In this document: piece by piece, positions 12,001 to 15,000 of the stretch
Numbering within the stretch: the first letter of the stretch is position 1
Layout: each line of letters starts with the position of its first letter
Source of the DNA: Dehalococcoidia bacterium
Lineage (GTDB): Bacteria; Chloroflexota; Dehalococcoidia; Lucifugimonadales; UBA826
Direction: 5' to 3'
DNA length: 64,000 nucleotides
Assembly: GCA_045564655.1 (NCBI GenBank)
Contig: JBJLGX010000020.1
Location: 3,864-67,863, forward strand
Made by a program: the position numbers

Positions 12001-15000
12001 GATGCAATAGAATTATCTGGATGGCTTAAAGATCAAGGTGTTGATCTCATTGATTGTTCTTCTGGAGGTATTTCTCAAGGCCAACAGATTGATACATTCC
12101 CCGGCTATCAAGTCCCTTTTGCTTCAAAGATAAGATCGGAAGTAGACGTATTGACTGGAGCGGTAGGACTGATTAGAGATTCAGCTCAAGCAGAACAAAC
12201 TTTGCGTAATGGTGATGCGGACGTTATATTGCTTGGAAGAGAATTATTAAGAAACCCTTATTGGGCTTTGTATGCACGAGAGGAGTTAGATAGAACTACA
12301 GATTTATGGCCTGCCCAGTATTTTAAATCATATACTGATACATATTCTGGAGTTCCACCTAGGTAGGTAAAAATTTTATGAATGATGAACTATTAAAATT
12401 ATCAAATCAAATTGCTGATATTTTAAAAAAATCAAATCACACTGTAGCTGTTTCTGAGTCATCGTCAGGCGGTTTAATTTCTGCTCATCTTTTGGCTATT
12501 CCGGGAGCTTCCGCATACTTTATAGGATCTGCTGTTTTGTATACAAGGAAAGCATCTGAAGCCTTCATAAATGTTACTGATGATGATCTTGTGGGTATCA
12601 GATCAGCTACAAAAGAGTATGCTTTATTCAATGCCCGTAGGGTAAAAGAAATGCTTGGTACGACTTGGGGTATTGCTGAAACAGGAGCATCTGGACCTAC
12701 TGGTAATAGATATGGAGATCCCGCTGGTCATTCTGCCATAGCAATTTCGGGTCCAGTAGAGGAATCAATCACCATTAGTACAAATAATTCTGATCGTGAA
12801 CTTAATATGATTGATTTCACTAAGAAGACATTTGAGGAATTTATTTCTGTTATATCAACTGATTAAAGTCCATCAAGTTTGACAGATCTTTTAAGTACTC
12901 TATAAAATCGTTACACTAATTTAATTTAATTTAGGAGTGTAATAATGGCTAATTACAGTTGTGAACAAGGTTGCGAAATGGAAGTTAATTTAACATGCGG
13001 CAAGTGTGGTGAAGAACTTTCTCATGTAACAATTGAAAAAGAAGATGGTACTTCCGTGGGTGTTGCTCAATGCTCTAAAGGATGTGGCAAGGTAAAATCT
13101 CCACTTTGTTGTGGAACTGATATGGCTGCTGCTTAGTTAACATTTTCAACTTATAAAAGGTAAGTAACTATAATTACTTACCTTTTTGATTAAGGTATAA
13201 AATATGTTCGCTTGGATTAATCAATATTCTTATGTCCTTATTGCGATCGTATTAATGATTCTTATTGGAATTGGTGCGACTAGAATATTTTCTTGGAAAG
13301 TATCGATTCTGATCCTAGTGGTTTTACTCATCGCATTTACTGTTTTTTTGAAATCTCAATCTATAAATAACGATCAGGTAAAGATAAGATCTGAATGGGA
13401 TACTATTTTGAGATCTAATTCTCCTGTTGTTTTGCAATTATATTCCGAGTATTGAATAGCGTGTATATCAATGAAACCTGCCGTGGACAGGTTAGAAAAG
13501 GAACTTTCTGGAAAAGTAACAATTGTTAGACTAGATGTTATGTCTGATTTAGGGAATGATTTGAAGAATGAATATGAAGTACCTATTATTCCGACTTTTA
13601 TATTTTTTGAAAAAGGTAAAGAAATCAGGAGAATACACAGAGTGCCTACATATCAAGAGCTTATAAGCTTATCCCAATGATCTGTTACTATTTACCTTCC
13701 ATATATTGGAGAATTATATGAAAAATAGAATTATATGAAAAATAAAGTCTACGTTACAAACAGTGCTGCAGTGCATGCAATAGCTAATCTTCGAGAACAT
13801 TTTGATGTAGAAGTTTGGGAAGAATTTGGTTCGCCTCCTAGAGATGTGTTACTTGAAAAAAGTAAAATATTTGACGGCATGATGATTGAATCTGATTGCA
13901 GATTTGATGAGGAACTTTTCAAATCTTCTGGCAATCTTAAAGTTGTAGGAACAAGGGCAGTAGGATATGACAATATAGATGTTGAATCTGCAACACGACA
14001 TGGAGTTGCTATAGGAAACACACCGGGTATCCTTCATGAATCTTGTGCAGATTTCACATTTGCTCTTATTTTATCTTTAGCTAGGAAAATATCTTATTCT
14101 AATCGTAAAATTATTAATGGAGATTGGAAAATATTTAATCAATTGCCATACTTAGGGTCAGATGTGCATGGTAAGACATTAGGACTTATAGGGCTTGGAA
14201 CTATAGGAGCAGCTGTTGCTAAAAGAGCTCAAGGATTCGATATGAATGTCATCTACTCTTCCAGGACTAGAAAGCCTCATTATGAAAAAGAATATTCGAT
14301 TGAATGGATTCCTGATATGGGAGATCTTTTATCCAGATCAGACTATGTTTCAATACATGTAGCTTTAACTGAAGATACCAAGAACTTGATTGGATTTGAT
14401 CAGATATCTAAAATGAAAGAAAGTTCTTTTCTGATTAATACTTCTAGAGGGGGCACTTTAGATCAAGATGCCCTTACAAAAGCTCTAGAAGAAAATATTA
14501 TTGCAGGAGCAGCATTAGATGTTACTGTCCCAGAGCCAATTGACCCTAATCATCCATTAGTTCACATGGATAATGTAGTAATGACTCCTCATATCGCGAG
14601 TGCTAGTTCAGAAACATATACAAACATGAGCTTAATGGCTGCTGATAATATAATTAGTTTTTTTCAAGGTACAAATATGCCTTCATGTTTGAATCCAGAG
14701 GTTCTAAAATAATTATTGGCAAGTAAATATATTTATGATTAATATAAAACACTCACTTGTAATAACGGTGTTGTTAACTAGTTTGCTGGTTATTGCATGT
14801 TCTTTTTTGGGCGAAGATGAAAAAGATTTGCCTTCAATTTATTTTATAGAGACCCCATTGGCTATTCCAAGCCCAGTTCTTACACCAACCCCAGTTTCTG
14901 CCTCTACCCCCATACCTATTATTATCCCTACCCCTCAAGTAATTACAGCAGATGACTTAATATACGAGGTTAAGAGAACAATGTCTTCTGTATATTCATA

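Follow-up and report, generated by a model that had tools for sequence, protein, structure and literature searches.

The locus studied here lies in a 64,000-nt stretch of contig JBJLGX010000020.1 (assembly GCA_045564655.1) from a Dehalococcoidia bacterium; this stretch, at its full length, is referred to below as the window. The window has a GC content of 35% and encodes an old yellow enzyme, an amidase, a sulfatase, an enolase-superfamily protein, a luciferase-like monooxygenase, several major facilitator superfamily (MFS) proteins, and MacB/FtsX and MMPL proteins, and close relatives carry the labels "SAR202 cluster bacterium" or "Chloroflexi bacterium". On the plus strand, two open reading frames (ORFs), 13204..13455 (83 aa) and 13471..13680 (69 aa), lie in one common frame, with only the TGA codon 13453–13455 and the five codons ATA GCG TGT ATA TCA (I A C I S) between them. 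GenBank annotates them as a "hypothetical" protein (MFL2756390.1) and a "thioredoxin family protein" (MFL2756391.1) in the neighbourhood MFL2756389–92, and the JGI, ENA, and Logan gene calls likewise split the gene in two. A preliminary description of the stretch had taken the two ORFs for a candidate selenoprotein gene interrupted by a UGA codon at the first Cys of a thioredoxin CxxC motif, and the arrangement of the two frames was found exactly as described there. Judged from the comparative analysis given below, 13204..13680 is very probably one gene for a 158-residue membrane-anchored selenocysteine (Sec) thioredoxin-like protein.

Read through the TGA, the product is ...VVLQLYSEY-U-IAC-ISMKPAVDRLEKEL...IIPTFIFFEKGKE..., with a length of 158 aa including Sec84, and the tryptic peptide spanning Sec84, as deduced from the sequence, is SNSPVVLQLYSEY-U-IACISMKPAVDR. 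When U was written as C, the joined product matched Pfam PF00085 over residues 63–153 (55.4 bits, E 6.8e-15; profile positions 8–97 of 103), well above the gathering threshold of 23.5 bits, and 192 thioredoxin-type sequences in the PDB were matched at E ≤ 0.01. The 3ʹ half alone scored 32.2 bits, and neither half constitutes a complete domain, which was in agreement with the earlier remark that neither would be a sensible protein by itself. In alignments with solved thioredoxins (4xhm_A and 8xyw_A), the UGA fell on the first Cys of WCxxC; U84-I-A-C87 forms a CxxC-type motif at the N-terminus of helix α1, and P130-T131 corresponds to the cis-Pro loop, so that the proposed placement of both the UGA and the "PT" loop was upheld. 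An AlphaFold2 model, built from an 11-sequence alignment, had a mean predicted local distance difference test score of 55 and was therefore used for the order of secondary structure elements alone, not for fold comparison; in this low-confidence model the order was TM1-TM2-β-α-β-α-β-β-α (TM, transmembrane helix), with helix α1 starting from residue 84. The features of the locus are collected in Table 1.

Table 1. Features of the putative selenoprotein gene and of the region upstream of it (positions in the window)
Feature	Position	Strand	Basis or remark
Putative complete selenoprotein coding sequence, two-TM anchor (N-out) plus thioredoxin-fold domain	13204..13680	+	Frame, PF00085, PDB alignment, full-length Cys homologs
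Predicted TM helix 1, about residues 11–25	13234..13278	+	Hydropathy and charge; AlphaFold2 helix 4–24 (low confidence)
Predicted TM helix 2, about residues 33–49	13300..13350	+	Hydropathy and charge
In-frame UGA, predicted Sec84, attacking-Cys position of CxxC	13453..13455	+	Homolog columns
Codon TGT of the resolving Cys87 of UxxC, within the annotated ORF "gap"	13462..13464	+	TGY invariant in Sec forms
Hairpin resembling a selenocysteine insertion sequence (SECIS), in the K-P-A-V-D-R-L codons	13475..13493	+	Comparative evidence and published constraints on bacterial SECIS elements
Cis-Pro loop "PT", Pro130-Thr131, family-invariant	13591..13596	+	Alignments
True terminator, also TGA, with no SECIS-like hairpin after it	13678..13680	+	Sequence
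Sigma-70-like promoter match TTGACA-18-TAAAAT, 11/12, upstream of the 63-aa gene	12879..12908	+	Consensus match only
63-aa, 9-Cys protein MFL2756389.1	12945..13136	+	Conserved upstream neighbour of the Sec thioredoxin gene in both marine SAR202-type lineages
Terminator- or attenuator-like 13-bp perfect hairpin plus U-run	13155..13186	+	z −3.59; 0/200 shuffles as stable

Ten Cys-form homologs (P0003–P0012) were retrieved from 5.8 billion proteins; they are single genes with the same layout of two TM helices and a thioredoxin domain. These proteins were 149–161 aa long, one of them being N-terminally shorter at 121 aa, and carried the motif ...LLLELQSPY-C-LG-C-VAMKPAVDRLEKEL..., also given as SPYCLGCVAMKPAVDRLEKEL. 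The 185,579 species-representative genomes, among which the window's species is not represented, contained Cys forms only, adding 16 from metagenome-assembled genomes (MAGs) of Anaerolineae/Chloroflexota and Verrucomicrobiota. When 1.84 billion representatives were searched with a profile, 344 family members were found at E ≤ 1e-10, mostly of 155–170 residues; about 15 of the top 150 representatives were C-terminal halves of 70–76 residues starting with M-K-P-x-V-D. Five of these short halves, together with P0135, in which the UGA had been called as Trp, were traced to DNA, and all of them had TGA at the first position of CxxC, preceded in all six loci by a TM-helix ORF. Further, the DNA pattern TGA-x-x-TGY-x-x-x-KPAVDRLEK picked out eight metagenome loci, each with one open frame across the TGA.

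The column of the UGA is occupied by TGA in L001, L002, and L021–L040 and by Cys, within the motif SPY-C-LG-C, in P0003–P0012 and L003–L019, and Sec and Cys pair at the catalytic position of the family. The in-frame TGA occurs in about ten diverged lineages with GC contents from 35% to 65% (the window group; L021/22/23/26; L024, 65% GC; L025; L033/34; L035; L036; L038; L039; and L040), with the frame open on both sides and the downstream protein conserved. Both kinds of relatives, single genes with Cys at this column and diverged genes with TGA there, thus agreed with the selenoprotein reading of the preliminary description. The Sec forms L025, L033–L036, and L038 and the Cys forms L003, L008, and L017–L019 share one syntenic slot between an EF-G-like gene and a TPMT/TehB-like methyltransferase gene, and Sec and Cys forms are therefore orthologs that differ by Sec versus Cys.

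The hairpin that had been pointed out downstream of the UGA is present in the window and has a 6-bp stem AACCUG/CAGGUU, a C·A mismatch, a C-G pair, and a GUG apex at 13483–13485, 27 nt past the UGA. It proved to be conserved and covarying among Sec forms. In each Sec lineage, the K-P-x-V-D-x-L codons pair at columns 23–30 with columns 34–41 after the UGA, around a GUN apex. Over 12 Sec sequences, 85.4% of the cells were paired, compared with 17–40% when the 3ʹ partner was slid, and compensatory changes were observed in three pairs (A-U<->G-C in four sequences, U-A>C-G in two, and G-C>A-U in two). None of 500 shuffles matched the observed covariation score or paired fraction (12 sequences; a 9-sequence version was also run). 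The stem is kept even where the peptide has changed, as in KPIVDEL (L033), KPVVDAV (L038, with one bulge), EPVVNRL (L039), and RPKVDGL (L040). Among four Sec lineages that differ widely in GC content, all 6/6 comparisons gave identical codons for Pro, Ala, and Asp, and synonymous-codon identity was 27/42 for hairpin codons versus 45/135 elsewhere (Fisher p ~6e-4, from pairs that are not phylogenetically independent). In the Cys forms there was no such excess (199/463 hairpin codons versus 1584/3396 elsewhere), and just 1–5 of the 7 stem positions pair.

According to a published model of bacterial SECIS (bSECIS) elements, the loop has 3–9 nt, the stem 4–16 bp, the distance from UGA to loop is 16–37 nt, and the minimum free energy is ≤ −7.5 kcal/mol, with a G in the first two loop positions and the apex N1-G-(G or U)-N-N2, in which N1 and N2 are paired (PMC13188914). 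The family hairpin agreed with this model in loop, G position, stem (6–8 bp), and spacing (27 nt), whereas the energy was borderline in AT-rich copies; energies in other lineages were −8.5 (L025), −7.8 (L035), and −12.8 kcal/mol (L036, which has a continuous 8-bp helix). As in fdhF-type and bSECISearch SECIS elements, the stem-loop lies within the ORF and 3ʹ of the UGA, and its apex C-G-U-N-G fits the consensus. Unlike the model, the SAR202 copies are very short and weak (−6.2 versus ≤ −7.5 kcal/mol), and unlike the usual bSECIS element, that of the family lies wholly within the codons of an invariant motif, where sequence and structure constraints are entangled. The comparison with a bacterial SECIS model that had been proposed for the window hairpin was thus favourable in loop, G position, stem, and spacing, with a borderline energy and no match in Rfam.

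Pieces of the Sec-form hairpin were seen in three Cys forms from Chloroflexota (L008, L017, and L003), for example AAACCAGCCGTTGACAGATTG in L008 compared to the Sec consensus AAACCTGCCGTTGACAGGTTA, and the Verrucomicrobiota Cys forms have unrelated codons at K-P-x-V-D-R-L. Judging from these sequences, the fragments in L008, L017, and L003 may be decaying SECIS relics left after conversion of Sec to Cys.

With regard to topology, the N-terminal tail contains no K or R and the loop between TM1 and TM2, TRIFSWK, has a charge of +2 (+2 to +5 in relatives), and by the positive-inside rule this loop is therefore predicted to be cytoplasmic and the thioredoxin domain to be outside. The relative in L024 has a single TM helix and a charged N-terminus, which is consistent with a C-out orientation. 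The following mechanism can be proposed. The UGA at 13453 would be decoded as Sec by SelB·GTP·Sec-tRNA(Sec), and SelB would be recruited by the stem-loop 20–40 nt downstream (apex C-GUG-G), which is encoded in the codons of the invariant K-P-A-V-D-R-L motif. The short N-terminal tail and the two TM helices would anchor a classical thioredoxin-fold domain, predicted to lie outside the cytoplasmic membrane, with the active site Sec84-Ile-Ala-Cys87; there the selenolate would attack a substrate disulfide, and a selenenylsulfide with Cys87 would resolve the reaction. The protein is thus predicted to be a membrane-tethered thiol/selenol-disulfide oxidoreductase.

Several observations weigh against this proposal. 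None of the Sec machinery looked for (tRNA, selA, selB, and selD) was found in the 64-kb window or in the ~350 kb of related loci; tRNAs were searched with ARAGORN in the window and eight Sec loci, and E. coli SelD, SelA, and SelB were compared by tblastn with the window and all loci, using approximate queries that are adequate only for homolog detection. Rfam gave no SECIS or tRNA-Sec match, either for the window at gathering thresholds or for the locus at E ≤ 10, which counts against the SECIS part of the proposal. The window hairpin alone has −6.2 kcal/mol against the bSECIS cut-off of −7.5, a 68-nt stretch folds with −8.0 kcal/mol (z +0.63), stretches of 61–68 nt fold no better than shuffles, and the L024 hairpin, with one mismatch, has only −1.1 kcal/mol. 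Since single-sequence folding is unremarkable, support for the SECIS is comparative and not thermodynamic. The comparative support has its own weak points: the non-independence of pairs weakens the synonymous-codon test of hairpin constraint, and the conserved peptide (Pro CCN/Arg MGN) itself supplies part of the stem complementarity, because of which the Cys forms L007 and L010 are able to form a different CCGG hairpin. For the outward orientation, the positive-inside rule is the sole basis and the charge bias of the window protein is small, and a CcdA/DsbD-type electron donor was found neither in the window nor around 22 loci.

All the evidence for read-through would be equally compatible with decoding of the UGA, by SECIS/SelB or a suppressor tRNA, as a residue other than Sec, or with low-level near-cognate read-through as Trp or Cys, and this alternative would also accommodate the lack of Sec-biosynthesis genes in the window and related loci. 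Mukai and colleagues have reportedly described a tRNA-Sec-like tRNA(Cys) with the anticodon UCA that inserts Cys in some bacteria. We nevertheless consider decoding as another residue very unlikely, as Cys is more simply encoded by TGY, just as it is in many Cys forms, and the maintenance of UGA together with a hairpin in about ten lineages is the standard Sec signature. In addition, Cys-recoding systems are rare, whereas large selenoproteomes are documented in this class: BSepDB counts 49 and 46 selenoprotein genes in two Dehalococcoidia MAGs, which places both in the top ten of selenoprotein-rich bacteria (PMC13326102), and the selenoprotein trait is established at the level of the class Dehalococcoidia.

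Still less probable, in our view, is that the UGA is a true stop and that the locus makes an 83-aa membrane peptide and, from the ATG at 13471, a 69-aa thioredoxin-fold protein without CxxC, as in the GenBank annotation. Gene callers do give two ORFs, an in-frame ATG lies five codons past the TGA in the window and several other lineages, and the window hairpin is weak. However, in L024, L025, and L039 the TGA is not followed by an ATG (the residues after it are SACLLAKPAV, LACNVIKPAV, and LACMALEPVV, respectively), and no Shine-Dalgarno-like motif precedes the ATG at 13471, compared to AAGG before 13204 and AGGAG before 12945. The codons of the "gap" itself argue for translation as well. Between the window and L001, all three substitutions in the five codons are synonymous (GCG>GCT, TGT>TGC, and TCA>TCG), the Cys87 codon (TGY) is invariant in 12/12 Sec-form sequences, and synonymous TGT/TGC variation at Cys87 occurs within the window's own population too; on this pattern of substitution, the gap codons are evidently under coding selection. 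Moreover, two separate polypeptides would be at odds with the single-gene homologs and the incomplete domains of both halves, and would leave the synonymous-site constraint and covariation of the hairpin without explanation.

A pseudogene, or a sequencing or assembly error from TGT/TGC to TGA in an ordinary thioredoxin-like gene, would take only one base change, and one copy, L002, has a second in-frame TGA at Gly103; the probability of this is negligible given that the same TGA is found in at least eight independent assemblies of the population and in about ten diverged lineages with intact downstream frames. The seven assemblies other than that of the window come from the same or a near-identical population and consist of a TARA contig (L028), an ENA contig (L002), a JGI contig (L037), and four Logan assemblies (L029–L032) of the separate runs ERR12177209, ERR14888811, ERR9649215, and SRR28395889. 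A relative with 84% identity also has the TGA in two assemblies (L001 and L027). The sequencing error that had been raised as a concern is thereby excluded. The second TGA of L002 (723 nt) replaces the nearly invariant Gly103 codon (GGA; window equivalent 13510–13512); it is a singleton, being absent from L028–L032 and L037, and probably reflects faulty assembly or a rare, defective allele. The idea that UGA encodes Gly, which this codon had raised, was rejected, as no other copy shares this codon and TGA normally ends translation here.

That UGA has been reassigned to Trp or Gly throughout the genome (genetic codes 4/25), for which two public gene calls that read UGA as W might be cited, has next to no probability, as TGA terminates 8/52 large open frames in the window, homologs carry Cys and not Trp or Gly at the UGA column, and no other window gene requires read-through. 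The frames ended by TGA include a complete Fmt gene, MFS genes, and the thioredoxin gene itself, with 13678–13680 and 23659–23661 among the stops. On the minus strand, 42848..41910 and 41906..40728 lie in the same frame with only TGA and one codon between them and encode a complete Fmt and a complete CoA-transferase III, respectively; these two unrelated proteins therefore provide an internal check that TGA acts as a stop in this genome, as had been assumed in the preliminary description. The two calls in question (P0001 from ENA and P0017 from JGI), both of 174 aa and from short contigs, translate both UGAs as Trp and pass the real terminator into non-conserved sequence. They overrun it by 16 residues and are misleading entries, one of which represents a 90% cluster.

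Sec in place of the first Cys of a thioredoxin CxxC is a classical type of bacterial selenoprotein, as in the thioredoxin of Treponema denticola. The family resembles this type in its PF00085-type fold, the position of Sec at the attacking Cys, the existence of Cys homologs, its occurrence in marine metagenomes, and a small stem-loop within the ORF with a G in the apical loop; it differs in the N-terminal two-TM anchor and the signature SxY-U-xxC-xx-KPAVDRLEKE. Catalogues of UxxC thioredoxin-like selenoproteins from marine metagenomes go back to 2005 (PMC1088965, PMC2398784), and the preliminary description had mentioned such reports. The Sargasso Sea set contained 11 thioredoxin selenoproteins with UxxC (PMC1088965), and the Global Ocean Sampling (GOS) study gives 321 sequences of "Trx-like 1" (COG0526) and 212 of "Trx-like 3", which is marine-enriched and weakly similar to cd02950 (PMC2398784). 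The attributes that the present family shares with "Trx-like 3" (UxxC, marine origin, and weak similarity to a CDD model of a membrane-anchored thioredoxin) are a lead only; motif strings of the family did not occur in the searched portion of the GOS supplement text, and the family has possibly already been counted as an unnamed GOS subfamily. We take cd02950 to be the membrane-anchored TxlA family. In kind, the protein is a further example of a known sort of selenoprotein, and the principles of selenoprotein biology are not changed by it.

Among membrane-anchored proteins, the family is like TlpA/ResA/CcmG (cd02966), TxlA/HCF164 (NF038096), and the C-terminal domain of DsbD in combining a TM anchor with a thioredoxin-fold CxxC domain predicted to face outward. 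Weak similarity by hidden Markov models was found to the last TM helix and C-terminal domain of DsbD (NF001419, E 2e-5) and, for the L021 form, to the slr1796 thylakoid factor (NF038096, E 0.002), both far below cut-off. Unlike TlpA/ResA/CcmG, the family belongs to PF00085 and not to the Redoxin/AhpC-TSA type (the joined product had no PF08534 or PF00578 match in Pfam), is anchored by two TM helices (N-out/C-out) and not by a single signal anchor, and has no CcdA/DsbD or cytochrome-c maturation genes near its loci. The cut-offs of the curated NCBIfam thioredoxin models, those for TrxA and TrxC included, were not reached (51.9 versus 96.8 bits for TIGR01068, the best; 30.5 versus 138 for NF006898; 39.1 versus 125 for NF008229), and considering also the two-TM anchor, the protein is therefore a thioredoxin-fold protein and not TrxA. 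With SaoT (NF040730), the HUIPC-motif family (NF047660), GOS_C (NF045500), TsoB (NF045694), and UGC-containing TlpA-like proteins, the family shares a UxxC-type thioredoxin fold and database entries that are typically truncated at the UGA. None of the curated NCBIfam models of thioredoxin-like selenoproteins was matched at cut-off, TsoB being the only one with any match (23.8 versus 805 bits).

For correct annotation the locus has practical consequences. GenBank, IMG, MGnify, and Logan either split the gene or apply the wrong genetic code, which is a correctable mis-annotation found repeatedly in an abundant ocean lineage (SAR202/Dehalococcoidia) and in many Anaerolineae-type contigs. The signature S-x-Y-U-x-x-C-x-x-x-K-P-x-V-D, combined with the C-GUN-G hairpin at 27 nt, can serve to recover further split copies and could seed a curated model. 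If the proposed reading as a selenoprotein is right, a membrane-anchored and probably extracytoplasmic thioredoxin is added to the selenoproteome of marine Chloroflexota, and the family provides a compact, well-sampled case in which a SECIS and a strongly conserved peptide overlap. With about ten Sec lineages and many Cys lineages, and one syntenic slot, it would be useful for the study of Sec/Cys exchange and of the minimal SECIS needs in AT-rich genomes.

A wider proposal can be put forward only tentatively, and we think it rather unlikely to be right in full: the family would be an uncatalogued, outward-facing, membrane-tethered selenoprotein oxidoreductase family with a single ancient SECIS in an invariant motif and repeated Sec-to-Cys conversion, it would have its centre in Chloroflexota, with Cys forms extending to Verrucomicrobiota, and its role would perhaps be in chalcogen or metal handling and not in general disulfide reduction. 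The role is suggested because of three kinds of neighbours, namely the translationally coupled TPMT/TehB-like methyltransferase in Anaerolineae-type loci, a cupredoxin in one lineage, and the 63-aa, 9-Cys protein in SAR202.

In the Anaerolineae-type loci, the EF-G-like GTPase gene lies upstream of the thioredoxin gene on the opposite strand, and the thioredoxin gene is followed, usually with stop/start overlap, by a gene for a class-I S-adenosylmethionine methyltransferase of ~190 aa. This methyltransferase is similar to TPMT (PF05724) and TehB (PF03848) and is absent from the window. Enzymes of the TPMT and TehB types methylate selenite and tellurite. Methylation of selenite has been described for bacterial TPMT (PMC10128142). 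In L039 (40% GC), a cupredoxin gene (PF13473/PF00127) is located at 1835–2182 (+), directly upstream of the Sec thioredoxin gene, which may point to a function in handling metalloproteins outside the cytoplasm.

The 63-aa protein is encoded ~65 nt upstream of the thioredoxin gene and has no Pfam or NCBIfam match. It has 9–10 Cys, arranged as two CxxC-like pairs and a CC, and only three relative clusters were found among the 5.8 billion proteins, all in this Chloroflexota group. In L021–L023 and L026–L028 its gene is located at −509..−318 relative to the TGA, and the remaining neighbours differ. From this association alone, the protein may be a candidate metal-binding partner or substrate of the thioredoxin-like protein. 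L001 retains the hairpin between the two genes, with a compensatory change. As the promoter match lies before the 63-aa gene and no comparable one was found directly upstream of 13204, the terminator-like hairpin suggests that the thioredoxin gene is expressed through partial read-through of a terminator or attenuator.

Elsewhere in the window, a scan for TGA codons with at least 40 codons on each side, and for UxxC, CxxU, CU, and UC contexts, gave otherwise only shadow-frame matches, and no second selenoprotein gene was found. About 4 kb upstream, two genes on the minus strand belong to families with known Sec forms: a glutaredoxin/NrdH-like gene (8885–9124) with the ordinary Cys form WCGDC and a gene of the CMD family (9157–9561) without CxxC/U. 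An RNase D-like gene (DNA_pol_A_exo1 plus HRDC) is located at 9714–10868 (+), 2.6 kb upstream of the Sec thioredoxin gene; in L024 an RNase D-like gene with 29% identity lies directly downstream of the Sec thioredoxin gene (4130–5269), a faint trace of common neighbourhood ancestry.

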